This document shows positions 8,378-42,132 of a stretch of 64,000 bases of DNA, piece after piece. Location of the stretch: sequence record OZ346189.1; one strand, written 5' to 3'. The position numbers and the translations under genes are program-made. Source of the stretch: a phage. Numbering within the stretch: position 1 is the stretch's first letter; every line of letters begins with the position of its first letter. The notes beneath the pieces were generated by a model. That model saw nothing but the letters and a program-made list of their open reading frames with translations, searched no databases and was not told the origin of the DNA.

Positions 8378-8503
8378 CTTATCTGGAGCCCTGTGGGTGA
8401 AATGGTGGTACATTGCTTCTGGCAAGCTTCTAAAATGATGGGAGTCCCGTTCCAGATCACAGGTGAATACTTGTGTGGTCGTAATTGGGGTAATTGTCAC
8501 TAA
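8378..8503 (+). CDS. DNA polymerase C-terminal exon (ORF open from 8147)
   Basis: LIWSPVGEMVVHCFWQASKMMGVPFQITGEYLCGRNWGNCH matches the conserved ...VPL.V..G.NW..AH terminus of Pol I/T7 gp5; same reading frame as 4481-7879. Confidence 0.55.
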   Translation, partial: LIWSPVGEMVVHCFWQASKMMGVPFQITGEYLCGRNWGNCH

Positions 8504-8552
8504 TGTAAACTATCAACACATGGAAGTGTTGTTGAGCAAAGAGGAGACTTTT

Positions 8553-8837
8553 ATGGTAGTAGAACCAACAAAAACATTTACATCCATGACTATCCCTGTT
8601 ATTATGCAGGTGGAGTGTGTTCAGGTATCTCAAGTGTGGCCTGGCACCAAAATCCCAACAGGGCCTGATTTCTTTCAGGTTGGGAAAGTGTACAATGTCT
8701 GGAAGGCACCAGATTGTTACCCTTTCATTAAAGATGACCGTGGGATGCTGTGGTATCTTGGAAATGACTTGACACTGCACCTTGGGAATGCTATTATTGC
8801 AGTATTCAGACTTAACAAGAAGGAGACCGATCAATGA
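8553..8837 (+). CDS. hypothetical protein
   Basis: ORF track 8463-8837; ATG 8553 preceded by GAGGAG SD 8541-8546. Confidence 0.5.
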   Translation: MVVEPTKTFTSMTIPVIMQVECVQVSQVWPGTKIPTGPDFFQVGKVYNVWKAPDCYPFIKDDRGMLWYLGNDLTLHLGNAIIAVFRLNKKETDQ

Positions 8838-9061
8838 CGACTTTGGTTAAAGCCACCTTTGTAGAAGAAAAGATGACAGACATGTCATTCTTTAAAGAAG
8901 GAAAGACCTACGAGGTTTATTCCGATAAAGCTCGTGCAAACAAAATGATTAAAGACGAGGAAGGGGTTGACTGGTATATCTCTCACCTGGCAAACGGTGA
9001 GTATCATATCTACGGAACCACTTTGCTTGCCAAGTTTGTAGTTGTTGAAGAGGACCTATGA
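8834..9061 (+). CDS. hypothetical protein
   Basis: 75 aa; AAGGAG SD; start overlaps upstream stop. Confidence 0.5.
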   Translation: MTTLVKATFVEEKMTDMSFFKEGKTYEVYSDKARANKMIKDEEGVDWYISHLANGEYHIYGTTLLAKFVVVEEDL

Positions 9062-9252
9062 AAGTAAAGTATCTTGCTGAAGGTATGAATAGGTATTTTA
9101 CCCTTGGTGAAGAATATTGGCCCTTTACAAACAACGGCGATGTCTACGTGAAAGATAATTTCGGCACGCCGTGGTTTCTGCACTCTAATGGGCTGGGATA
9201 CTCCATTTACTGCGGTGCAGTGAACAACACAACTCTTGCAGAGTTCGTTTAG
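9058..9252 (+). CDS. hypothetical protein
   Basis: 64 aa; translationally coupled to upstream ORF. Confidence 0.45.
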   Translation: MKVKYLAEGMNRYFTLGEEYWPFTNNGDVYVKDNFGTPWFLHSNGLGYSIYCGAVNNTTLAEFV

Positions 9253-9710: not shown

Positions 9711-9965
9711 ATGAAAATCATGTTGAAACCAGAATGCGTTGCAAACGACCGAGCTTTTAAAGATTGCACACTTGGCGCTACTTATGAAGCAGAGTTTTGT
9801 GAGAACCCTTTGGTAAAAGCCCTTTTGGAAGAAGGGGCCCCTCTATCACAAGAAGAGCTTGATGAGCTGGAAAACTCAGCACAGTGCCTTACCTTTAAAG
9901 ATGATGAAGGAGACTCTGTCTGGTGCACTGTTAACGAAGTAGTTTTTGTAAAAACTGAACATTAA
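9711..9965 (+). CDS. hypothetical protein (paralog of 10029-10289)
   Basis: 84 aa; AAGGAGA SD; shares AF(K/R)DCT and D..GD.V.CT motifs with the next gene. Confidence 0.55.
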   Translation: MKIMLKPECVANDRAFKDCTLGATYEAEFCENPLVKALLEEGAPLSQEELDELENSAQCLTFKDDEGDSVWCTVNEVVFVKTEH

Positions 9966-9968
9966 TAC

Positions 9969-9997
9969 TTGACAACAGCGATAGGACCTAATACAAT
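9969..9997 (+). promoter_or_regulatory. sigma70-like promoter
   Basis: TTGACA 9969-9974, 17-nt spacer, TACAAT 9992-9997. Confidence 0.55.
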
Positions 9998-10028
9998 GGT
10001 CCTATCAAAACGAAAGGGGACCACAGCA

Positions 10029-10289
10029 ATGACCAAACAATATCAACGAATTAAAGCCAAGGTTAAGCCAGACTATCTAGAGAAGGACTCTGCTTTTCGG
10101 GACTGCACAGCTGACAAAGTTTACACAGGGGCCGTCCTGTTGAACGATAAACTTGAAGTAGATGTGCTGGGTAAAGAGGCCGTTATCGAGGATGACAACG
10201 GTGACTGTGTTTTCTGCACCACACGAGAGCTAGAAGTCTTAGAATATTTCGGTGAAATCTTCAACTCCTTAGACGACGAGGAAGCGTGA
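10029..10289 (+). CDS. hypothetical protein (paralog of 9711-9965)
   Basis: ORF track 9969-10289 starts inside the promoter; ATG 10029 lies downstream of predicted TSS. Confidence 0.5.
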   Translation: MTKQYQRIKAKVKPDYLEKDSAFRDCTADKVYTGAVLLNDKLEVDVLGKEAVIEDDNGDCVFCTTRELEVLEYFGEIFNSLDDEEA

Positions 10290-28203: not shown

Positions 28204-28589
28204 GTCTGCTCTTCCTCCTACCACAAACGGCCCAGCCTGGCAAGTGGAATAATTGACTAGCCATCAATCCCACACACTGTACAAATATACATGGAAAATA
28301 ACTATTGCATAATTTTTCATTGTGTGGTAGCAGGTCCATTTTTACCCGTTTTCTCTCTCAAAATTGCACGTAATGCCGCTATTGCACAAAATTTAACCTG
28401 ATGCACATCTTCAATATCTTGTCAACAACTAAAAATCTTTATAAGTCATACACTTACACACTCACAAAAGCGTGTTCTACGTGAAAAATCGAGTATAACT
28501 ATAGCCGCCAGATCTCAGAATTTACAAAGGCCATCATTAAAGCTTCAGTAAAATCAGTCATTCCTCACCTCTTGTTAGTCACTATACTA

Positions 28590-28853
28590 TCATTTATCCT
28601 TGTCGTCAAGAACTTTTTTAAATCTTTCAGGGATATCTCCCGTTCTTAGATAGTTCATGACCTCGCAAGGTTCCCACTTGAATTTCTTACAGAGCAGGGC
28701 GGCTGAGATTGTTTCATTGCGAAAAGAAAGGATATTAATATCCCACTCTGAGAACCCCAACTTCCGAAGGGTAGCTACAGAAATCCTCACCGCAACCCAG
28801 CAGCAAAAACATGCAACAAACGCCACTGCTACAACCCACATCAGGATGTTCAT
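28590..28853 (-). CDS. membrane protein
   Basis: 87 aa; N-terminal TM WVVAVAFVACFCCWVAV; last gene of - block. Confidence 0.45.
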   Translation of the reverse strand: MNILMWVVAVAFVACFCCWVAVRISVATLRKLGFSEWDINILSFRNETISAALLCKKFKWEPCEVMNYLRTGDIPERFKKVLDDKDK

Positions 28854-28862
28854 ATAAGCACC

Positions 28863-28946
28863 TTACTGAAATACAAGACACAGTGTTAAGGTTACTGACC
28901 AGCAAATAATTAACAGTGCCGTTGCAACCTTGGCAAGATTTATCAT
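28863..28946 (-). CDS. micro-ORF, hydrophobic (27 aa)
   Basis: ATG overlaps upstream stop (ATGA); MINLAKVATALLIICWSVTLTLCLVFQ; GAGG SD. Confidence 0.25.
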   Translation of the reverse strand: MINLAKVATALLIICWSVTLTLCLVFQ

Positions 28947-29230
28947 AGTGCCTCTAAGATTTCATATCCTTCGGGTCGGAATACAAGCCACTCCGTGGCT
29001 CCGTTTGGTCGATACGCTTTATACAGAACAACCTGGTCTCGGCACATGCACATGGCTACATAGTTTTCATCCACACCTGCAGCCTGCATTGCATCTTCTT
29101 CTCCGGCAACTGCTTTGCTTACAACTTCCTTGGTAGGCAGGTGTGCGATCAGCTCGTCACCATCATTAATTCCAAAATGGCTGAGTTCGCCGTTGGTATC
29201 TTTAATCTTAATCTTAACCAGATCTTTCAT
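28943..29230 (-). CDS. small acidic protein, paralog family member
   Basis: 95 aa; N-terminal KIKIK and C-terminal ...EGYEILEAL shared with family. Confidence 0.5.
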   Translation of the reverse strand: MKDLVKIKIKDTNGELSHFGINDGDELIAHLPTKEVVSKAVAGEEDAMQAAGVDENYVAMCMCRDQVVLYKAYRPNGATEWLVFRPEGYEILEAL

Positions 29231-29559
29231 TAGTCTTCCCCCAGGTTCAAAGGTCCTAAGATTTCATATGCCAGATTAGAAGTTACAAGAGGGTCTTCTG
29301 CGTCTTTAGTATTATACCACCCGTGAATAACCAGAGTCCCACTTTGTTTCATGTCCAACTGGAACTCTTCTGCCGTTTCCTCATCCAGCTCCAAGATTTC
29401 CATAAGGTATTTGATGTTAGGGAGGTATGCAGCTGTTACAGTCCCCTCTACCAGACCTTCAGGCCAACCTACATCTGGATGACAAGTAGGAACCAGATTG
29501 GTCAGCTTAATGGTGTACGCTTTTTCTGCACGAGCCTTCAGTAACGGGTCAATCTTCAT
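29230..29559 (-). CDS. hypothetical protein
   Basis: 109 aa; acidic. Confidence 0.5.
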   Translation of the reverse strand: MKIDPLLKARAEKAYTIKLTNLVPTCHPDVGWPEGLVEGTVTAAYLPNIKYLMEILELDEETAEEFQLDMKQSGTLVIHGWYNTKDAEDPLVTSNLAYEILGPLNLGED

Positions 29560-29909
29560 TATTCGTCCTCCTCTTCGGTACCTGCTTCCAGTAATAAGTT
29601 AAGAATATCTTCTGCACAAGGCTCATAGAACTCTTGGCCTTCATTATCGATGATTTTGTAGTCATCTCCGCGAATAATCAGAGGATCACTCTCAAAATTA
29701 TCGAGACCTTTAACAACGACAACACGATCGATTGCCATCATTGTAAGAACTTTATCGACATCTTCCTCTGCTACACCATACTGCAGCAGAATGTCTTTGG
29801 TAGGAGGAACAGCATCCACCACAACACCGTTACCAAAACCTTCCGGTAAGTTAGCTAAAATATCTTCCGGAACCACACTAACATCAAAACCAGTAATTTC
29901 TACTTTCAT
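29559..29909 (-). CDS. small acidic protein
   Basis: 116 aa; MKVEITG... start; poly-Glu C-terminus. Confidence 0.5.
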   Translation of the reverse strand: MKVEITGFDVSVVPEDILANLPEGFGNGVVVDAVPPTKDILLQYGVAEEDVDKVLTMMAIDRVVVVKGLDNFESDPLIIRGDDYKIIDNEGQEFYEPCAEDILNLLLEAGTEEEDE

Positions 29910-30170
29910 TTACAGCACCTCTTCGTCAACTACTTCATAAAAATGGCCTGGGATTGCAATAGCGTTCTCACCTTCACCTACAAACACAGTTCCGTCAAGA
30001 ATCAACATCATAAGAGTTTCTGGAATATCCTCTTCCTGAACGTTGCCAAAACCTTTAATCAGCTCGTAGGTTGGAAGATTTACCTCTAAGATGTCACCAT
30101 CTTTAGAGCGGAAATCAACACCATCCTGAATCTCTGCCATTTCAAGGTTTTTCAGTTTAATCTTCATCAA
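29910..30170 (-). CDS. small acidic protein, paralog family member
   Basis: 86 aa; MMKIKLKNLE...HFYEVVDEEVL. Confidence 0.5.
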   Translation of the reverse strand: MMKIKLKNLEMAEIQDGVDFRSKDGDILEVNLPTYELIKGFGNVQEEDIPETLMMLILDGTVFVGEGENAIAIPGHFYEVVDEEVL

Positions 30171-30246
30171 TCAGTCTCCCGTCTTGTTAAGATGAAGGTA
30201 TTATTTCACACAGGGTTGGCGTTGTCAACACCTGTGTGCAAGAAAA

Positions 30247-30642
30247 TTACTGAAACAGTGCGGATAAATTACCTTCTGGTGGGAACTTATCTGCCAAAAA
30301 CGGTGTTAGCACAGTAGCCTTCTGAAGATCTGGGGTCCACTCGTTGTTCAGAACATCCCAGTAGTACGCAATGTTGCTGTGTGGGTGCCGCATTACGAAC
30401 TTTTTCCCTTCGTAGTCATCTGAAACCTCTACAGAAGAAATAACAACAGAATCTTCAAGGGTTTCTTCATAGAAAGATCCACCTTCAAATTTCCAACGAG
30501 ATGCAAGAGCTCCTGCCTTGAACGCTGCAGATAACGGACTGTCTGCAAGAACATACATTTCTTGCACTCTGTCGCTGCGATCTTTGCTTCTTACGTTGTA
30601 TACAGTATCTGAGCTATACTCAACACGGTATAGGCTTACCAT
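30247..30642 (-). CDS. hypothetical protein (paralog of 32449-32847)
   Basis: 131 aa; shared segments ..A.KAG.A.RW..EG... and ..HP.S...YW.....WTP. Confidence 0.55.
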   Translation of the reverse strand: MVSLYRVEYSSDTVYNVRSKDRSDRVQEMYVLADSPLSAAFKAGALASRWKFEGGSFYEETLEDSVVISSVEVSDDYEGKKFVMRHPHSNIAYYWDVLNNEWTPDLQKATVLTPFLADKFPPEGNLSALFQ

Positions 30643-30974
30643 TACCGCACCTCCTCAATAACTTCCACATCTGAGCCCACCACAAATGCAAAAGGACAGG
30701 TTTCATGAAAGACATCCGGATCGCCGCCAAGCTTGCTAACAATCTCTCCACCACTAATAAACACAAGCTCACCGATATTCATCAGATTGCTGAAATAGTA
30801 CCCATAATGATTAAAGAATGCAGCAGGGTCAGGTAGACTAGTAGCCTCAAGCACTACATCAGTTGAGGTTACTTTCTTATCATAACCTCTCGCCTTTTGA
30901 GATGCAAGATCTGCAGAATCCTCAGGCGACCGGAGATGCACAGGAATTGTTTCACCAATAAAGCGTACTTTCAT
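30642..30974 (-). CDS. small acidic protein, paralog family member
   Basis: ORF track 30642-31001; family-type start MKVRFIGE at 30974; C-terminus ...DVEVIEEVR. Confidence 0.5.
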   Translation of the reverse strand: MKVRFIGETIPVHLRSPEDSADLASQKARGYDKKVTSTDVVLEATSLPDPAAFFNHYGYYFSNLMNIGELVFISGGEIVSKLGGDPDVFHETCPFAFVVGSDVEVIEEVR

Positions 30975-30978
30975 ATTA

Positions 30979-31242
30979 TCACCCAACAACCATAGCTTCA
31001 AAAGGGGTCATGAACGAATAAACGGCATCATCATCTGCTTCAGGGAATGCTCCCAAAGACTTCATGTCTGAGCCCTTGACAAATACAAGGTTTTGATCAA
31101 AAGCTTCTTGAGGATCAATCCGATACATATTTCGTAGAATATCGCCTACCTCCTCATCAAGAGGTGAGTATGCTGTGCACGTTTTTCCGATCAAGCTTTG
31201 AGAATCAGGGTATCCACCTGAAGTTTTAAAATAAACAATCAT
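30979..31242 (-). CDS. hypothetical protein
   Basis: 87 aa. Confidence 0.45.
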   Translation of the reverse strand: MIVYFKTSGGYPDSQSLIGKTCTAYSPLDEEVGDILRNMYRIDPQEAFDQNLVFVKGSDMKSLGAFPEADDDAVYSFMTPFEAMVVG

Positions 31243-31333
31243 ATAGTATCACCTCTGGTAAGAGATTGGGATTCCTTTCCCACAAATAATTACAAACCTT
31301 CCTTATCGAGGAAGTATGCTAATCCAAGCAGGA

Positions 31334-31603
31334 TTATTCCTCTACAATCTCATACACATCCGGAGTTACAATCAACTCTTCTCCGTTACCCGGTGCAACA
31401 AACACCACCATGCCTTCAGGTGTGTGCTTTTTAGCCATCTCGATAACATCTTCTCGCAGAGCTGGCTCCATCAGATCAAAACCTTCACCCAGGGCATCAC
31501 GAACCACCTTCATATAGTCAACTGGTTGTGCTTCGACAATCATACCTTCAACCAGTCCACAGTTTTTGTCTGCCAGCTCAGTTTTGAATAATTTAATTTT
31601 CAT
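31334..31603 (-). CDS. small acidic protein, paralog family member
   Basis: 89 aa; MKIKLFKTEL...DVYEIVEE. Confidence 0.5.
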   Translation of the reverse strand: MKIKLFKTELADKNCGLVEGMIVEAQPVDYMKVVRDALGEGFDLMEPALREDVIEMAKKHTPEGMVVFVAPGNGEELIVTPDVYEIVEE

Positions 31604-31629
31604 TTAGAGGTCTCCTCAATTATTTGATA

Positions 31630-31731
31630 TTAATAGCCGTAACCTAACACATTAACTACAACTGCGATTGCAAACATAATTTCAAAGCATGCAATCTCTA
31701 CATTTGGAACTAATTTCTTGATCACACCCAT
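31630..31731 (-). CDS. micro-ORF, hydrophobic (33 aa)
   Basis: MGVIKKLVPNVEIACFEIMFAIAVVVNVLGYGY; GAGGTG SD 7 nt upstream. Confidence 0.25.
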   Translation of the reverse strand: MGVIKKLVPNVEIACFEIMFAIAVVVNVLGYGY

Positions 31732-31740
31732 TGTAGCACC

Positions 31741-32058
31741 TCATTCTCTAAAGTCAATCTTTACTTTGCCTTTCCCCTTACCTTTCTTTCCACCGCATTT
31801 AGCCAGTTGACGTGCTGCAACATCTACCATACGGTCAGTTGCCTCGTAAGCATCACTGCCTTTAGCTTTGGCAATAACTTCTTTTCCAGAATTGTCAAAA
31901 ATGAACGCCATAACTTCCTGGTGATCATTTTCAACTTTTACACTCACACGTGCATAGTTGGCAGAGGGATGCAAACGCTCCAGCTTAGACATTTTGTGGG
32001 AAATGAAAGACACCATACCTTCAGTGATTTCTACGTTGCCAGTGATTTCAATTTGCAT
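31741..32058 (-). CDS. hpf: ribosome hibernation promoting factor / RaiA family protein
   Basis: 105 aa; MQIEITGNVEITEGMVSFISHKMSKLERL...ARVSVKVE...AKAKGSDAYEATDRMVDVAARQLAK parallels bacterial HPF/YfiA (MQLNITG..VEIT.AL...KL......V.LKVEK......A.G.D.Y.AID...DKL.RQL) over its full length. Confidence 0.7.
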   Translation of the reverse strand: MQIEITGNVEITEGMVSFISHKMSKLERLHPSANYARVSVKVENDHQEVMAFIFDNSGKEVIAKAKGSDAYEATDRMVDVAARQLAKCGGKKGKGKGKVKIDFRE

Positions 32059-32140
32059 AACGTGTTCCTTTTAAAGAAGAGGGAACCAAACCCTCTTTGA
32101 AAACAATGATACTAAATCTGAAGCGTTGTGTCAACAGTTT

Positions 32141-32431
32141 TTACAGATTGTTGTCGATAGTTTTTAAAATATCCACAGCAAGATCTGCCATTTTTCGAAC
32201 ATACTCTGCAAACTCAACAGGATCCTTGATCAAAGAATTCACAGGGTCGTACCCTAGAGCGTTCAAAATGGCTGCAGCATCTACAACCTTCTCATCATTT
32301 GCGAAGATCTCTCCATCAAACTTGTAGGTCCATTTTGAGTCAATCTTGGCAGGGAATGATTGGTCAACGCTTGTTACACCATCCTTTTTAAACGCTCCGG
32401 TGTTATCAGTGTCTAGAACTAAATCCATCAT
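32141..32431 (-). CDS. hypothetical protein
   Basis: 96 aa; acidic. Confidence 0.45.
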   Translation of the reverse strand: MMDLVLDTDNTGAFKKDGVTSVDQSFPAKIDSKWTYKFDGEIFANDEKVVDAAAILNALGYDPVNSLIKDPVEFAEYVRKMADLAVDILKTIDNNL

Positions 32432-32448
32432 GTTAGTACCTCACCGTT

Positions 32449-32847
32449 TCAGTTTAGCTTTTCTTCAACAACCCCATAGCTCGGGACAGAGTCAAGAGCT
32501 TTCTGGTTTAAAAGTGGTGTAGCAGAATCTGCAAACGGTGTCCAAGTTTTTGTTCTGGCATTCCAGTAATGCTTCACTCTGGAATCTGGATGCACTATAA
32601 CAAAAACTTTTTCACTTGTCAACACATTAATTTCTTCTACACCCTTGCTGATAATTTCTCCGTCATAGCCACCAGTCTGGTATCCTTCGTACCAGGTTCT
32701 TGCATATGCATAGCCAGCCTGCCAGCATGCAGCCTCCTCCGAGGTGGAGACTACGTAGAAGTCTTTCTCAAATTCTGGGATACGCCCTTGCTTTACGCTC
32801 CAAGCTCCGCGAATTTTCATTGTAACTTTGAACAGTTTATTTTTCAC
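32449..32847 (-). CDS. hypothetical protein (paralog of 30247-30642)
   Basis: 132 aa. Confidence 0.55.
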   Translation of the reverse strand: MKNKLFKVTMKIRGAWSVKQGRIPEFEKDFYVVSTSEEAACWQAGYAYARTWYEGYQTGGYDGEIISKGVEEINVLTSEKVFVIVHPDSRVKHYWNARTKTWTPFADSATPLLNQKALDSVPSYGVVEEKLN

Positions 32848-32859
32848 AACGGTTACCCA

Positions 32860-33114
32860 TCACAGCTCTACAATCTCTGCATCTGACCCTGCCCCAAAGG
32901 CATAATAGGATTCTTCCCCGAAATAATATTCCGGTGCACCAGCAGCGATCAGGTCTGATCCCAAGATAAACACCACGTTGTGGCCTACATAACTGTGATG
33001 TTGCCGCACAGGATCATCCCACGGCAACCCTTCAAAGTATACCGCAGGAACGACCTTTCCCTTCAGGAAGGATTGTCCCAAGTAGACGTTAGAATCAAGA
33101 ATTTTAACCTTCAT
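32860..33114 (-). CDS. small acidic protein, paralog family member
   Basis: 84 aa; MKVKILDSNVYLGQ...DLIAAGA...DAEIVEL. Confidence 0.5.
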   Translation of the reverse strand: MKVKILDSNVYLGQSFLKGKVVPAVYFEGLPWDDPVRQHHSYVGHNVVFILGSDLIAAGAPEYYFGEESYYAFGAGSDAEIVEL

Positions 33115-33331
33115 TCTCGTCCTCCACTATCTCTACATCCTCACCAAGGGCAAAGTTGTAGGTCCACTGGCTGTCAAAGCAGTCCTGAGATGCACCAGCG
33201 GAAATAAGATCTGCACCTTTTATTTTTAAAAGGTCAGGATAATCTTCGTTAGGGATAGCGGTAAACACTTTCCCCACTAAGGGCTCCTGACCAATATAGA
33301 AGCTTGAATCTAAAACTTTAACTTTCATCAA
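33104..33331 (-). CDS. small acidic protein, paralog family member
   Basis: 75 aa; MMKVKVLDSSFYIGQ...DLISAGA...DVEIVEDENEG. Confidence 0.5.
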   Translation of the reverse strand: MMKVKVLDSSFYIGQEPLVGKVFTAIPNEDYPDLLKIKGADLISAGASQDCFDSQWTYNFALGEDVEIVEDENEG

Positions 33332-33615
33332 CGGTCTCCCTCAGGCGGTTGTGGGACGTAAACACTGTTACGAATATCGTCAGCAGTGTAGTAATAAGTG
33401 GTTCCAACCCTATCTCGGGCTGCAATGTACTCTGCTATACCAATAAGTGCCATTGATTTGGTGGCGTATCTTCCCCACTCGTTAGCTCCCCAGTAGAATT
33501 TAGACCAGTAGGGAATAATACCGAACAAATATACCTTTTGACGAACTTCCCAGTAAGTGCCTTTTCCGACAAGTTTAAACTCTACTTCACTACTGTTAAT
33601 CTTTTTCATTATCAA
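33328..33615 (-). CDS. hypothetical protein
   Basis: 95 aa; Trp/Tyr-rich. Confidence 0.45.
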   Translation of the reverse strand: MIMKKINSSEVEFKLVGKGTYWEVRQKVYLFGIIPYWSKFYWGANEWGRYATKSMALIGIAEYIAARDRVGTTYYYTADDIRNSVYVPQPPEGDR

Positions 33616-33908
33616 TCTCCCTCTACCGTGGTCGGATTGTCAGTAAGAAATTGAGCATTGGCTGGAGGCACGCCTGACATTTTCCACACAACCATAAGTT
33701 TGTAACCAGGAACTCTATTAAGTGCAGATCGAGTAGAGTTTGTGCACGTATACTTTCGCTTTCCAAACCCGTTCTCCATCATAATCCAGTACCCAGTATC
33801 TTTGTCACCAGGTATCGGTAGACCACCTTCATCAACCCACTGAATGGACCACGGCACGATGGCTACAGCTTTATATTTAAACTTTTTAAACCACTCAAAA
33901 AGTTTCAT
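33612..33908 (-). CDS. hypothetical protein
   Basis: 98 aa. Confidence 0.45.
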   Translation of the reverse strand: MKLFEWFKKFKYKAVAIVPWSIQWVDEGGLPIPGDKDTGYWIMMENGFGKRKYTCTNSTRSALNRVPGYKLMVVWKMSGVPPANAQFLTDNPTTVEGD

Positions 33909-34003
33909 AATTCAGCCTCGCATAGACATAATCACTATAAACAGGCAAACAATGAATCCGAATGCCACGCCACCCATAAACGTTAATATTGATGCAATCA
34001 TAG

Positions 34004-34189
34004 TCAATCAGCCTCGCTTGGCAACTCTTCTACCTTAACATGCCGAAAAGTGTTACCGTAATGGTTGATCCATGACATCAGCTCGCTTTCTTGCTCTTCC
34101 TCTGGGATGAACTCTCGAATGCTGACAAGTTTTAAGAAAACCCAATCACAATCTGCACCCATTCTACCAGACAGGCAATAGTGCTTCAT
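34004..34189 (-). CDS. hypothetical protein
   Basis: 61 aa. Confidence 0.35.
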   Translation of the reverse strand: MKHYCLSGRMGADCDWVFLKLVSIREFIPEEEQESELMSWINHYGNTFRHVKVEELPSEAD

Positions 34190-34207
34190 AAAACCCCCCC
34201 ACCTGGT

Positions 34208-34402
34208 TTAGAATATTGCTTCTTCCATTGCACCTGAGAGCAACAAAGAGGTGATCTGGCTAACATTCATCTCAGACTCTACTTCCTCCCCTTTGAAAGG
34301 TTCGCGGCAGAATAGGACTGTTTCAGGACTTTTACTTCGAACAATATAATACAAATCATTCAATGTGTTGTAGTAATAAGTGTTAAAACGTAAGTTTTTC
34401 AT
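34208..34402 (-). CDS. hypothetical protein
   Basis: 64 aa. Confidence 0.35.
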   Translation of the reverse strand: MKNLRFNTYYYNTLNDLYYIVRSKSPETVLFCREPFKGEEVESEMNVSQITSLLLSGAMEEAIF

Positions 34403-34686
34403 TTTCTAGTCCCCTTCTTAGATTTTTGTGTAGAAACGCTTTCTGCAATACGAGACAAACGTTCTTCTGAAGCCTTGCCTATTCCAGGTTTTTTGAGTGG
34501 GTTATCTTTATGACCACAATCCAATTGGATATTGGATACCTCTCCAACCTTGTAAGTCAATTCTAGCAAAAGGTTGTCGTCCTTGTCAAATGTTCTTACG
34601 ATAAATTTTTTATCGTTCTCCTGAACTTCGTATCGGGTACCCGCAGTATACAACATGGTGCCATCCGCATAGGATATCCAGATCAT
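34399..34686 (-). CDS. hypothetical protein
   Basis: 95 aa; basic C-terminus. Confidence 0.45.
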   Translation of the reverse strand: MIWISYADGTMLYTAGTRYEVQENDKKFIVRTFDKDDNLLLELTYKVGEVSNIQLDCGHKDNPLKKPGIGKASEERLSRIAESVSTQKSKKGTRK

Positions 34687-35030
34687 TGAACCTCCTTCTG
34701 CTGCAACAGCATTAACTCTTTGTTGGAGATTTTTACTGCTGTTTTTATTGTTCCATCTTCACGAAACCACGACCAGAACTCTACAGTGTCCCCACTGTCA
34801 AGCAAAGCATACCCGTGGTAGAAGTCTTTGTCCTTAGACAGTTTCTCATCTATGTCTGCATCGACACATTCGTGATCCATAGCATTTTGCCTGAATGCAT
34901 CGGTTATACCAATGCACGCCTTGCTCTCAAGACTGGTATATCCGATATCTTTTAATTCAGTTTCCCAAGTCCAGTACCCTATAAAAGCTAAAACAGCTAC
35001 CCACATTAATAACGTTTTAATCTTTGGCAT
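34683..35030 (-). CDS. secreted or membrane-anchored protein
   Basis: 115 aa; N-terminal hydrophobic segment LLMWVAVLAFIGYW. Confidence 0.45.
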   Translation of the reverse strand: MPKIKTLLMWVAVLAFIGYWTWETELKDIGYTSLESKACIGITDAFRQNAMDHECVDADIDEKLSKDKDFYHGYALLDSGDTVEFWSWFREDGTIKTAVKISNKELMLLQQKEVQ

Positions 35031-35092
35031 TCTCTCTACCTCTTTCTTAGTTTATTTCACTATGGCACATCCTTTGTGCCATATCTCAACCA

Positions 35093-35554
35093 CTACTTAA
35101 ATAGTAGTCCAAAATAGTGCAAAATTAACAGAAGTTGAACTACACCTAGTGCAACGGCGAGTATGTTAATCTTAGAATCGAAAAACTTCTTAACTTTTAC
35201 TCTAAAAGGTTCCTTAATGTCCTTTACGATCCTATTTATAGATGATTTCATATCCCTGATTACCATCCTAAACATTAGAGACGGATCTTCCTTCTCTGTA
35301 ATAGAATCGAAAACATACTCTCTTCGGTCATAAGGACCTCCAGATCTGCGTATTAACCTCTCCACAGAGACCTCGTACGACACACCTGTAACGTAATCAT
35401 CTATGATAAGTAGTGACGGGTCTTTATCGTCCAAGGGTATTAAAGTTATCTTTCCAGATTTTGTTAAAATTTCTCCTTTTTCAAGCAAGGTGTACCAATG
35501 CTCTCTACCAAGATTGTTGAGGCACGTTTTTACATATTTAACAAACATCGTCAC
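35093..35554 (-). CDS. C-terminally membrane-anchored protein
   Basis: 153 aa; C-terminal TM ILAVALGVVQLLLILHYFGLLF. Confidence 0.5.
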   Translation of the reverse strand: MTMFVKYVKTCLNNLGREHWYTLLEKGEILTKSGKITLIPLDDKDPSLLIIDDYVTGVSYEVSVERLIRRSGGPYDRREYVFDSITEKEDPSLMFRMVIRDMKSSINRIVKDIKEPFRVKVKKFFDSKINILAVALGVVQLLLILHYFGLLFK

Positions 35555-35736
35555 CCCTCATAGCACGTCTGATATAACCACTCTATGAAATCTTGATACC
35601 ATTCGCCCTCTGAGCGCTCCGTAGGCCAATAATCTTCACCCTCTCGTGCATTAAAATCTGAGTATTCAACTTTCCACTCCTTTACCAGCTCGTGGAGAAG
35701 GTTTTCAGCCTGCTCTAAAGATTTATTTTTTGCCAT
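35551..35736 (-). CDS. hypothetical protein
   Basis: ORF track 35551-35754 (TTG); likely start ATG at 35736 (MAKNKSLEQ...) after AAGGAGA SD. Confidence 0.4.
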   Translation of the reverse strand: MAKNKSLEQAENLLHELVKEWKVEYSDFNAREGEDYWPTERSEGEWYQDFIEWLYQTCYEG

Positions 35737-35955
35737 TGCTGTCTCCTTTTTCAAGATAGTTATACATCAGAACTGCACCACCTAAGATGGCTACCAGTAA
35801 CAATATCCCAGATAGCATCTCAATAAACATGGCTTGAAACACTGGAAGGTCTCCCTAAATTAACGCACCATTTTAAATACATGCTCTTTTCCCATAAAGG
35901 TGCCTGGCTAAGATCTGCGTAGAACGCAATCTCTTTAAGAACAGTATAGATAGTT

Positions 35956-36183
35956 TTAGGTGCGGTCTCCATCCCTACTCTCCTTCCTGATATTCTTGTA
36001 GTAATCAACTAGGCACATTATTACGATGAAGATAACAACAGGCCAAAAAGGTGCAGCAGTGATGATGGTGATAAAATCATCAAACTTCACCCTTCGTCTG
36101 GACACGATGCATACACCTGTCAAGAATACCGCTGTTATAACGGACATTACCAGGTAACCTATTAGCACAACATTTATACTCAT
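35956..36183 (-). CDS. membrane protein
   Basis: ORF track 35956-36273 overlaps upstream gene; internal start MSINVVLIGYLVMSV at 36183; two TM segments. Confidence 0.4.
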   Translation of the reverse strand: MSINVVLIGYLVMSVITAVFLTGVCIVSRRRVKFDDFITIITAAPFWPVVIFIVIMCLVDYYKNIRKESRDGDRT

Positions 36184-36214
36184 TGGTCCTCCCCTTTGTA
36201 GGTTAAATTGTATA

Positions 36215-36748
36215 CTACAAATGGTCGCTGAGGGTGTCAAGAAAATTATCCCGTTCTTTCTCAGAGTTTTCATGTGTGTAGCTGAAAAACATATCGAGAA
36301 TAACCTTATTGATATATTCCAGCTCCTCTGTGTTCAGATGCTTAGCAGGATCTACAATGACATCCCAAATATCATACAGACCACACTCATGATACCCATA
36401 ACGCCACTCAATTGTCAAGCTGAGCGGCAAATCTTTACCGTCACAAACAACCTTCCATCTACATATGTTGGTATCTGGTCGTACCTGTGCACGGTACACC
36501 TGTACAAAATCCAATTTGAATTTGAGGTACTCGTCATACAATTTAAGCACAAAGCTCTCGATTTGTGGAGACACTTTTGCAGCAAACTGTGCGTATTTGT
36601 ACTTGCACTGGATGATCTTTCTGCGTTTTGCAGTTAAATTTTTTGCCGCCAGTTGTTCTTCAGTGTATCTCCACCTACGATCAACAAACGCAACAGGGTC
36701 TTTGTCCCCATAGAGGTCTTCCCAGTTAATCAGAAGCATACCTGTCAC
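36215..36748 (-). CDS. hypothetical protein
   Basis: 177 aa. Confidence 0.5.
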   Translation of the reverse strand: MTGMLLINWEDLYGDKDPVAFVDRRWRYTEEQLAAKNLTAKRRKIIQCKYKYAQFAAKVSPQIESFVLKLYDEYLKFKLDFVQVYRAQVRPDTNICRWKVVCDGKDLPLSLTIEWRYGYHECGLYDIWDVIVDPAKHLNTEELEYINKVILDMFFSYTHENSEKERDNFLDTLSDHL

Positions 36749-36978
36749 TCCTCCACAACTTCAAGGCCTTTACCGCCTCGCTCTGGCAGATTACTTAAAG
36801 ATAGGTAATACATATAATCAGGAGAGATCCTGCCAGACTCTGCACCTGCAGCTAGTAAATCCTTCCCTTTAACCAGGACAACATTCTCGTTTGCAGATAG
36901 CCGTTTTGCTTCCACAATTTTACCAACACAGTCAACCAAGGAAGGGTACCCTAAATCTGTAAGAAATTTAACTTTCAT
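36745..36978 (-). CDS. small acidic protein, paralog family member
   Basis: 77 aa; MKVKFLTDLGY...DLLAAGA...GLEVVEE. Confidence 0.5.
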   Translation of the reverse strand: MKVKFLTDLGYPSLVDCVGKIVEAKRLSANENVVLVKGKDLLAAGAESGRISPDYMYYLSLSNLPERGGKGLEVVEE

Positions 36979-37015
36979 GCTACCTCCTACCTACCATCCC
37001 TGGTAAGATAAATTA

Positions 37016-37414
37016 TTACTGAACAGAGCGCGGTGCTGGGAAGGATAACTCTTCTAAAGAGAAGATTTCATTTCCTACCACCCAAGTTGCTGGGTCATCT
37101 GGATCAACAGGTTGGATAATCATTACCTCATCAGCCTCGCACACACGTTTCCCACCCATAGTAGCGTCAGCCACTAACATACGCGGCTCTTCAGAAATGC
37201 ACAGGTAGCCACCTCGGCCCACTGTTCCTTCCACGGGATCCTGCCCTTTGACCACAATGAATACCTTCTCTCCTGTGGCGATATTACTTTTCACACTAAC
37301 AGTTTGACCAACTTTAGATGTACCGATCTTGGTGGCTTCAAACATTAAATCCCGAATTACTGTTGCATAGTTGCCGGACACTTTCTTACCTTCTTTAGTA
37401 ATCTCAATCTTCAT
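37016..37414 (-). CDS. hypothetical protein
   Basis: 132 aa. Confidence 0.5.
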   Translation of the reverse strand: MKIEITKEGKKVSGNYATVIRDLMFEATKIGTSKVGQTVSVKSNIATGEKVFIVVKGQDPVEGTVGRGGYLCISEEPRMLVADATMGGKRVCEADEVMIIQPVDPDDPATWVVGNEIFSLEELSFPAPRSVQ

Positions 37415-37686
37415 AATCTAGGCTCCTTAAATGAATCTATGTAATCAATTAAATCCCAAGCATCGCGATGGGCTGTCAGAGGGTATACTTCTCCGAGAGG
37501 GATCATAGCAATAAGTCTATCAAAAACCCAGTCTGGACGCAACATTTTATGGTGATATTCCCACTCACCTTCCACAGATTTTTTCTGAGTTATCAGGATC
37601 TCTGTGTAGTGTTTCTCCTGTCTTGAGTAGATTGAAAATGACTTGTACATAAATGACCCCCTCTTGTTGAAAACAACAATACACAA
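37411..37686 (-). CDS. hypothetical protein
   Basis: 91 aa. Confidence 0.45.
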   Translation of the reverse strand: MCIVVFNKRGSFMYKSFSIYSRQEKHYTEILITQKKSVEGEWEYHHKMLRPDWVFDRLIAMIPLGEVYPLTAHRDAWDLIDYIDSFKEPRL

Positions 37687-41425: not shown

Positions 41426-41899
41426 TTAGTCAACCTGAACCCAACCACCTGCTGCCTTTTTAAACATTCTTTGGTTATCACTACCTCTGAAGGGTTTTTT
41501 GGTTGGGTTATCTTTTTCGTACTTACCATCCATAATGTAATCGACACTATCTTTAATGTAATCGGGAACCTCTTCAAACAAATACCCTGTGTACACCCAG
41601 ATAGTTTTTGTGTTGCCGAAGTGTTCACGGATAGCGCTAATGATCGAGTACATACCCTCAATATTGTAAGGCGCTAAAGGTTCGCCACCGCATAATGTAA
41701 CGCCAGTAATGTGTTTCGGCTCTATAGAGTGAAGTATACTCTCAATAGTGTCATTTGTTAACGGTTCCCCTTTAGCTGGTGACCAAACACTTTTGTTTTG
41801 GCAACCGACGCAGTGATGTGGGCAACCAGAACAGAACACCGTTGTCCTAATGCCTGGGCCGTCAACCATGCTACACTCTATAATATTAACAACATTCAT
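41426..41899 (-). CDS. nrdG: anaerobic ribonucleotide reductase activating protein
   Basis: 157 aa; radical-SAM-type Cys cluster CSGCPHHCVGCQN near N-terminus; adjacent to nrdD. Confidence 0.75.
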   Translation of the reverse strand: MNVVNIIECSMVDGPGIRTTVFCSGCPHHCVGCQNKSVWSPAKGEPLTNDTIESILHSIEPKHITGVTLCGGEPLAPYNIEGMYSIISAIREHFGNTKTIWVYTGYLFEEVPDYIKDSVDYIMDGKYEKDNPTKKPFRGSDNQRMFKKAAGGWVQVD

Positions 41900-42132
41900 T
41901 CCTTATCCTCTTTTAGGTAAGGATATTCAGGCCCACAATAAGCTCTATCCAAGAAAACAGCTTCTTCCCCTCTGGAATCAGTAGATCTATAATACCCATC
42001 ACCATGGTAACTAACGAACCAGTGGCACCCATCATCGCTTTCTACTGTTGTGGCTCTGTCCGAATGAAAGATAATTTCGTAATCCTTACCGAATGTAAAC
42101 CATCTGTTAGCTTTTACACAGACACCTATCAT
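41896..42132 (-). CDS. hypothetical protein
   Basis: 78 aa. Confidence 0.4.
   Translation of the reverse strand: MIGVCVKANRWFTFGKDYEIIFHSDRATTVESDDGCHWFVSYHGDGYYRSTDSRGEEAVFLDRAYCGPEYPYLKEDKE

Follow-up and report, generated by a model that had tools for sequence, protein, structure and literature searches.

The small SH3-like beta-barrel usually serves as a binding module, and its described versions include SH3 itself, the KOW domain of Spt5 and NusG, PsaE and the C-terminal domain of retroviral integrase. Such barrels are predicted for two of three families of small acidic proteins encoded by a dense gene array on the minus strand of phage sequence record OZ346189.1 (64,000 nucleotides analysed, referred to below as the window). 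The closest counterparts in phenotype are bas54_0140 of phage MaxBurger (Bas54), an anti-DS-28 gene, and T4 NrdC.1, an anti-Septu gene (10.1101/2025.11.20.689424). Like one group of genes in the array, consisting of two family A genes followed by a family C gene (A-A-C), these are small, unannotated, dispensable in K-12 and depleted in a clinical isolate. Both have been paired with a cloned defence system by means of clean knockouts; the phenotype of the A-A-C genes comes from transposon data.

The region of the array (window 28900–37500) is 99.6% identical to Escherichia phage AlexBoehm (Bas56), an rV5-like myovirus of the genus Vequintavirus, and 122 related records match it, nearly all of them end to end. 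Phages of this type are widely considered for therapy and for biocontrol of pathogenic E. coli, and about two thirds of their genes are unannotated. In the annotation of the relatives, every gene of the stretch is hypothetical except a ribosome hibernation factor homologue (HPF) and a 'putative glycosidase'. In the rV5 genome paper, genes 82–163 are taken to form a single transcriptional unit served by several sigma-70-type promoters, and paralogues go unmentioned. Literature searches by locus tag or PHROG number returned no mention of the array genes.

About a dozen of these unannotated genes can now be sorted into three families, two of which are given a fold, and one A-A-C group can be tied to a phenotype that was already in published data but had drawn no comment: these genes are required in a uropathogenic isolate. 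The array is read here as a set of small, acidic, cytoplasmic accessory proteins that bind host proteins in a host-specific manner, possibly in counter-defence. Taken whole, this reading has an even chance of being right. Its descriptive part is near certain, and its counter-defence part is tentative, somewhat short of even. The proteins fit no described family; small phage accessory and probable counter-defence proteins are, as a kind, well known.

Three families of small genes

The initial annotation had grouped seven open reading frames (ORFs) of the array, named here as throughout by their lowest coordinate (28943, 29910, 30642, 31334, 32860, 33104 and 36745), as a single family of at least seven small acidic paralogues. 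All seven are present on the minus strand at those positions, and three are shortened by the starts annotated in close relatives (to 33104–33328, 29910–30167 and 30642–30974). They are indeed acidic, with pI values of 4.05–5.4, and net charges across all members of the array range from -1 to -22. An N-terminal motif of the MK[VI]K type and a C-terminal motif of the E[IV][IVL][ED] type occur together in exactly these seven among 124 non-overlapping genes (Fisher p = 8.5e-6, in a post hoc test). The single family does not survive iteration with hidden Markov models (HMMs), comparison with hhalign and a control with other small proteins. Instead, five genes form family A, four or five form family B and two form family C. 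Two genes missing from the list of seven, 30979 and 29559, belong to families A and B, respectively.

Membership was assessed by all-against-all blastp with composition correction and by local HMM iteration. For family A, the pair 32860/33104 is the most closely matched (E = 8e-14), followed by 33104/36745 (2e-5) and 30642/33104 (1e-3). An HMM built from 32860, 33104 and 36745 recruits 30979 (5.6e-7) and 30642 (1.6e-5) among 397 ORFs, with no other match below 0.7. By sequence comparison, family A thus comprises 36745, 33104, 32860, 30642 and 30979. The first three match PHROG 5009 end to end and 30979 matches it weakly (Table 1); neither 30642 nor any family B gene does so. PHROG 5009 has no function attached, 30642 forms a separate group (PHROG 13661) and each family B gene has a PHROG of its own, so that the paralogy among the array genes is not recorded in that database. 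The G.DL(I/L)AAGA segment, pointed out earlier in several members, is specific to family A.

Family B is seeded by 29559 and 29910, and iteration adds 28943 (4e-3) and 31334 (5e-4); once included, 28943 improves to 1e-37. A further gene, 29230, aligns with the family B profile in hhalign (69%, E = 4e-5) and is a probable fifth member of this sequence-defined family. Family C consists of the two genes of ~130 amino acids, 32449 and 30247, which had been singled out as a second paralogue pair and are confirmed as such by blastp (E = 8e-9) and by their common assignment to phrog_7379.

Since all of these proteins are short, acidic and beta-rich, their resemblance could be a by-product of composition with no real family behind it. 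The link between families A and B, which does not rise above the background of real small proteins, speaks for such an account. Within family A, however, the composition-corrected blastp value of 8e-14, the recruitment of two further members by a three-member HMM at 1e-5 to 1e-7, the independent grouping by PHROG and homologues in unrelated phages reaching 1e-10 to 1e-25 all speak against it, as do the mutual best matches among family B members. The composition-only explanation is refuted for each family taken separately and is scarcely credible overall: similarity beyond composition is significant within A and within B, and fails only between them.

Families A (5 copies), B (4 + 1) and C (2) are confined to the array region in the closest relative, judged over its complete genome. 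The order A-A-C occurs twice, as 33104-32860-32449 and as 30979-30642-30247. Identity between paralogues is 23–49%. A simple, recent one-step duplication of an A-A-C cassette is doubtful, because the A genes of the upstream group resemble each other more than any other member (49%), and those of the downstream group are the most distant pair (23%).

The paralogues had been called diversifying. Among five Vequintavirus genomes (rV5, Pr121LW, CM1, MaxBurger and phita32), the ratio of nonsynonymous to synonymous substitution rates (dN/dS) between orthologues is 0.04–0.18 for nearly all members, with similar values for neighbouring genes; the exception is 29910, whose ratio of 0.64 is based on a dS of only 0.035. 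Each orthologue is under purifying selection, and the paralogues are old and individually conserved, not diversifying, given these low ratios. Together with the Shine-Dalgarno-like motifs found at nearly all array genes, they also indicate that these are real, maintained genes.

Individual copies are damaged in some isolates. The rV5 record has the 28943 orthologue as two separate ORFs (L012 10599–10869; gp148/gp149), and the 30979 orthologue is shortened in phita32 (L016 8587–8733) and in phage V18 (P0032); these are either pseudogenes or sequencing errors. A 70-amino-acid protein (P0014) on rV5-like contigs of up to 133 kb is an in-frame hybrid, with an N-terminal half of the 33104 type and a C-terminal half of the 32860 type, and looks like the product of a recombinational deletion between adjacent paralogues at their common DLIAAGA segment.

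Predicted fold and distribution

The AlphaFold2 model of a family A protein, 33104, has a predicted local distance difference test score (pLDDT) of 92, with strands at residues 2–5, 21–26, 33–37, 56–61 and 65–69 and a short helix at 38–43. The model of a family B protein, 31334 (pLDDT 93), has strands at 2–5, 22–27, 66–69, 76–79 and 84–88, and three helices inserted between strands 2 and 3. In both predicted models the five strands run antiparallel and make up a small barrel, which can be superposed on solved SH3, KOW or PsaE domains. Families A and B are therefore both modelled as SH3-like five-strand beta-barrels, with a helical insert in B.

Identity of the array proteins to the known SH3-like barrels is 4–25%. 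Unlike the SH3, KOW and PsaE systems, the predicted barrels of the array are stand-alone, strongly acidic and phage-encoded. The conserved G-x-D-L-I-x-A-G-A helix after strand 3 in family A and the three-helix insert in family B are further differences. Profile searches of Pfam, NCBIfam and PDB found no relative of any member (in Pfam, nothing at E <= 1), and no member matches a canonical SH3 profile of the Pfam SH3 clan. Foldseek comparison with viral models (BFVD) gives template modelling (TM) scores of 0.7–0.83 to unannotated phage proteins of 65–90 amino acids, from Citrobacter phage Merlin, Shigella phage Sf20, RB49, pSf-1, Cronobacter phage CS01 and others, including T4-like and T1-like phages. 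Matches outside the proteins' own family have weak E-values (1e-2 to 1e-1), are all unannotated and showed no link at the sequence level.

A kinship with KOW and NusG was suspected by eye, from the likeness of NDGxY..G..vGKVVEA to NDGPFADFNGVVEEV, and is unsupported: there is no Pfam KOW match, and hhalign of the family A profile against the KOW domain of E. coli NusG, with a manually entered NusG sequence, gives a probability of 0.3%. These two results also bear on the proposal that the barrels are KOW-like or ribosomal-protein-like binders of nucleic acid or ribosomes, which would reprogram translation or transcription in concert with the hibernation factor encoded next to them. The acidity of all members is unfavourable for binding RNA or DNA. 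The HPF gene has a promoter of its own, is neither essential nor conditionally essential in the transposon screen described below, and shows no linkage to the family A homologues of other phages. A role of this kind is thus very improbable.

The shared fold raises the question of whether families A and B, ten or so genes, are one highly divergent family, derived by serial tandem duplication of a single ancestral SH3-like gene. Comparison of 35 A sequences with 13 B sequences in hhalign yields a probability of 7.9%, over the first 27 columns only. The score of this alignment, 19.9, exceeds that of column-shuffled nulls (9.0 +/- 1.7). However, individual family B members score 11.8–17.6 with the family A profile, within a background of real, unrelated small proteins from the window that extends to 18.6; the HMM of 35 A sequences detects no family B member at E < 1. 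The inserts lie in different loops, the motif test that linked the seven ORFs was post hoc, and the N-terminal MK(V/I)K strand also begins the unrelated HPF-like gene and 37016. A single divergent family is accordingly possible but stands well below even. At the sequence level A and B are treated as two separate families, because B members score inside the background of real small proteins. Since both are predicted to be SH3-like barrels, a very old common origin may still be entertained, with much the same reserve.

Family A extends well beyond this phage. When 1.84 billion representative proteins were searched exhaustively with the profile, only 38 family A clusters came up at E <= 1e-3, most of them stand-alone proteins of 65–85 amino acids with the consensus MKVKLLNDGGY.GM...vGKVveA...I.G.DLI.AGA...F...Y.F..G.E.EvvEE. 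One hit, P0064, a repetitive, acidic protein of 1,140 amino acids, is a likely false positive. In lambdoid E. coli prophages the gene sits between the Q antiterminator and holin genes; of 5,426 complete E. coli genomes, 13 carry this version. It adjoins the DNA polymerase gene in Vibrio phage CHOED and occurs in T1-like and Proteus phages. On metagenomic phage contigs it adjoins primase-polymerase, helicase, RecT or integrase genes, or lies between terminase and portal genes. Multiple copies are also found elsewhere, with three adjacent genes on one locus (L023), three genes on another (L022) and two each in CHOED and on a further locus (L008). A metagenomic protein of 264 amino acids (L007 703–1497, P0049) consists of a tandem of three family A domains and, after them, a C-terminal segment with a resemblance by eye to small domains of the DUF1653 type.

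In CHOED, the ORF annotated as 'HNH endonuclease' (CHOED_040, L002 4557–5216) continues in frame into a complete family A domain with its own methionine (MQVKLIGN...), and a second family A gene (L002 5206–5409) follows directly. Either a homing-endonuclease insertion has become joined to the small gene, or the ORF has been called too long.

Families B and C are restricted to rV5-like phages, and no linkage of family C to family A was found outside them. The confinement of the copies to one region, the sporadic and multi-copy occurrence of family A in unrelated phages and the damage to individual copies in some isolates indicate that all three families are accessory genes in the rV5-like phage.

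Requirement in a clinical isolate and proposed role

The Bas54 orthologues of the array proteins are 97–99% identical to them in amino acid sequence, and Bas54 has been subjected to transposon-insertion sequencing (HIDEN-SEQ; 10.1101/2025.11.20.689424). The K-12 classes in Table 1 are from supplementary file 9 of that preprint, and the clinical values are from a resampling comparison between K-12 BW25113 and a uropathogenic isolate. Three adjacent genes, bas54_0150, 0151 and 0152, can be disrupted by insertions in K-12, but the number of insertions in them is zero in the clinical isolate (10.1101/2025.11.20.689424). The downstream A-A-C group (orthologues of 30979, 30642 and 30247) is thus conditionally essential in one uropathogenic isolate. 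The tandem paralogues that had been proposed as a host-interaction module are real, and a host-interaction role finds backing in these outside data.

In supplementary file 9 (sheet 'Data S6' and the one following), the title K-12_vs_CFE303 stands over a command line that uses the B54_2_311 files. Parts 17 and 19 of this file are numerically identical, which suggests that one of the two Bas54 clinical-isolate tables is a duplicate or bears the wrong label. CFE311 is the probable isolate, because the command line names 311 files and the table also shows depletion of the known anti-DS-28 genes, bas54_0063 and bas54_0140.

In a rival account, only family C would matter in the clinical host, with the A and B barrels serving the phage itself, for example as small adaptor or chaperone subunits for replication, recombination or transcription proteins, and with the family A phenotype a polar effect on 30247. 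The three genes are tightly packed, with 30642 and 30247 overlapping by 1 nucleotide, and the second C gene (32449) is depleted while its two upstream A genes are not. The frequent position of family A next to polymerase, primase, helicase or RecT genes in other phages would also suit such a role, as would the 'Intermediate' class of bas54_0151–0153, which are not fully neutral in K-12. However, the authors of the preprint argue against widespread polar effects, and insertions upstream of other depleted genes are not themselves depleted (0141 before 0140; 0158/0159 before 0157) (10.1101/2025.11.20.689424). Outside the rV5-like phages family A is everywhere without family C, and it also occupies slots unrelated to replication, such as those between Q and holin and between terminase and portal. 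A phenotype of family C alone is therefore considered unlikely. Because insertions directly upstream of other depleted genes are tolerated, the two A genes 30979 and 30642 are probably required themselves.

A virion component was considered and provisionally set aside: the main text of the rV5 proteomics paper lists no product of the array as a virion protein, and insertions in K-12 are tolerated. Stoichiometric binding of host proteins is the most likely activity, because the proteins have neither a catalytic motif nor a membrane segment and their predicted fold is normally a binding module. Each paralogue would bind a host protein that varies between strains and block or redirect it, and the paralogues would supply different specificities. 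The most likely target would be a component of an anti-phage defence system, and the two A proteins and the C protein of one group may act together as a unit. The gene bas54_0140 lies in the same long leftward gene block as the A-A-C genes, and the family HMMs do not match its orthologue in AlexBoehm.

Several points weigh against host-specific binding in counter-defence. The preprint contains no discussion or follow-up of bas54_0150–0152 and reports no pairing of them with a defence system (10.1101/2025.11.20.689424). The phenotype was observed in one clinical strain and involves two of the five family A genes and none of the five family B genes. Conditional essentiality can reflect host physiology rather than immunity. 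Polarity within the tightly packed 30979-30642-30247 group could leave the requirement with the C gene alone, and the host label is ambiguous, as the supplementary sheet is titled CFE303 and the command line names 311 files.

In a bolder version of the counter-defence reading, family A would be a class of SH3-like proteins that has so far escaped notice, moves horizontally and acts against defence systems, in both virulent and temperate phages of Gammaproteobacteria. In rV5-like phages, the two A proteins and the C protein would then combine into a tripartite inhibitor directed at an immune system of uropathogenic E. coli, and the second A-A-C group, the lone A gene and the run of B genes would be spare specificities. 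This version is rather improbable. Should the target be a defence system, the anti-defence repertoire would gain a new family and a new fold, and the homologues of family A in lambdoid prophages and in T1-like, Vibrio and Proteus phages would be flagged as well.

Genome setting and neighbouring features

The array forms the distal end of a long leftward gene block, which also encodes a ClpP-like protease, a methyltransferase, ribonucleotide reductase, thymidylate synthase and ligase. Its assignment to an early or middle region is an extrapolation from the sigma-70-like promoters and the co-orientation with nucleotide-metabolism genes. The HPF homologue, which is interleaved in the array, is not matched by the HMMs of family A, B or C.

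Table 1. Genes and signals of the array in the window, with rV5 and Bas54 orthologues; K-12 classes and clinical log2 fold changes (log2FC) are from 10.1101/2025.11.20.689424; aa, amino acids; nt, nucleotides
Feature	Positions	Strand	rV5 gene	Bas54 gene	K-12 class	Clinical log2FC	Remarks
Family A, 77 aa, pI 5.4	36745–36978	-	gp122	bas54_0166	Non-essential	0.72	phrog_5009 E = 8e-36; family HMM
Family A, 74 aa, pI 4.05	33104–33328	-	gp135	bas54_0159	Non-essential	0.98	First gene of upstream A-A-C group; phrog_5009 E = 1e-36
Family A, 84 aa	32860–33114	-	gp136	bas54_0158	Non-essential	-0.30	11-nt overlap with 33104; phrog_5009 E = 4e-32
Family C (phrog_7379), 123–132 aa by start codon	32449–32847	-	gp137	bas54_0157	Non-essential	-2.14 (q = 0)	
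Sigma-70-like promoter TTGACA-17-TATCAT	32106–32134	-					Upstream of HPF gene; annotated rV5 promoter P144
Ribosome hibernation factor homologue (HPF)	31741–32058	-					Annotation in relatives
Family B, 89 aa	31334–31603	-	gp141	bas54_0153	Intermediate	-2.78 (not significant)	
Terminator-like hairpin	31298–31314	-					Between 31334 and downstream A-A-C group; consensus scan only
Family A, 87 aa	30979–31242	-	gp142	bas54_0152	Intermediate	-7.16 (q = 0)	First gene of downstream A-A-C group; phrog_5009 weak, E = 1.2e-4
Family A, 110 aa, N-terminal loop insertion	30642–30974	-	gp143	bas54_0151	Intermediate	-6.17 (q = 0)	
Family C, 131 aa	30247–30642	-	gp144	bas54_0150	Non-essential	-6.77 (q = 0)	phrog_7379 E = 2e-66; start overlaps 30642 stop by 1 nt
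Sigma-70-like promoter TTGACA-17-AATAAT, TG upstream	30200–30228	-					Ahead of family B run; annotated rV5 promoter P150
Family B, 85 aa	29910–30167	-	gp145	bas54_0149	Non-essential	0.40	phmmer against 29559 E = 3e-4; HMM
Family B, 116 aa, acidic C-terminal tail	29559–29909	-	gp146	bas54_0148	Non-essential	0.06	
Probable fifth family B, 109 aa	29230–29559	-	gp147	bas54_0147	Non-essential	-0.04	hmmsearch E = 0.004; hhalign 69%
Family B, 95 aa	28943–29230	-	gp148 + gp149 (split)	bas54_0146	Non-essential	0.32	

A junction at window 28526–28590 is unique to the window: in all 122 related records, the matches to window 28250–28850 fall at two places apart from each other. Compared with AlexBoehm, ~4.4 kb (record positions 90835–95271) are missing from the window, consisting of most of a ~2.5-kb non-coding convergent region and ten small genes, among them the orthologue of bas54_0140. 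The non-coding region carries no transposon insertions in Bas54 (10.1101/2025.11.20.689424).

MaxBurger lacks five small genes of the window, from 34004 to ~35093 (compared over window ~33900–35500). They include the orthologue of rV5 ORF133, a gene with the annotation 'virion structural protein' whose product was reported as predominant in virion mass spectrometry. Window 37016–37414 holds a gene for a protein of 132 amino acids (phrog_5748) that also starts with MKIEIT and matches none of the three families. It is unusually variable among relatives, with 84–90% nucleotide identity and insertions or deletions in rV5.

Other small paralogues occur elsewhere in the window. The plus-strand arm carries a pair at 9711–9965 and 9969–10289 (E = 9e-6). 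A second set comprises 8463–8837, 8834–9061, 9058–9252 and 41896–42132 (E 3e-4 to 4e-3), the last of which lies far from the others and on the minus strand.

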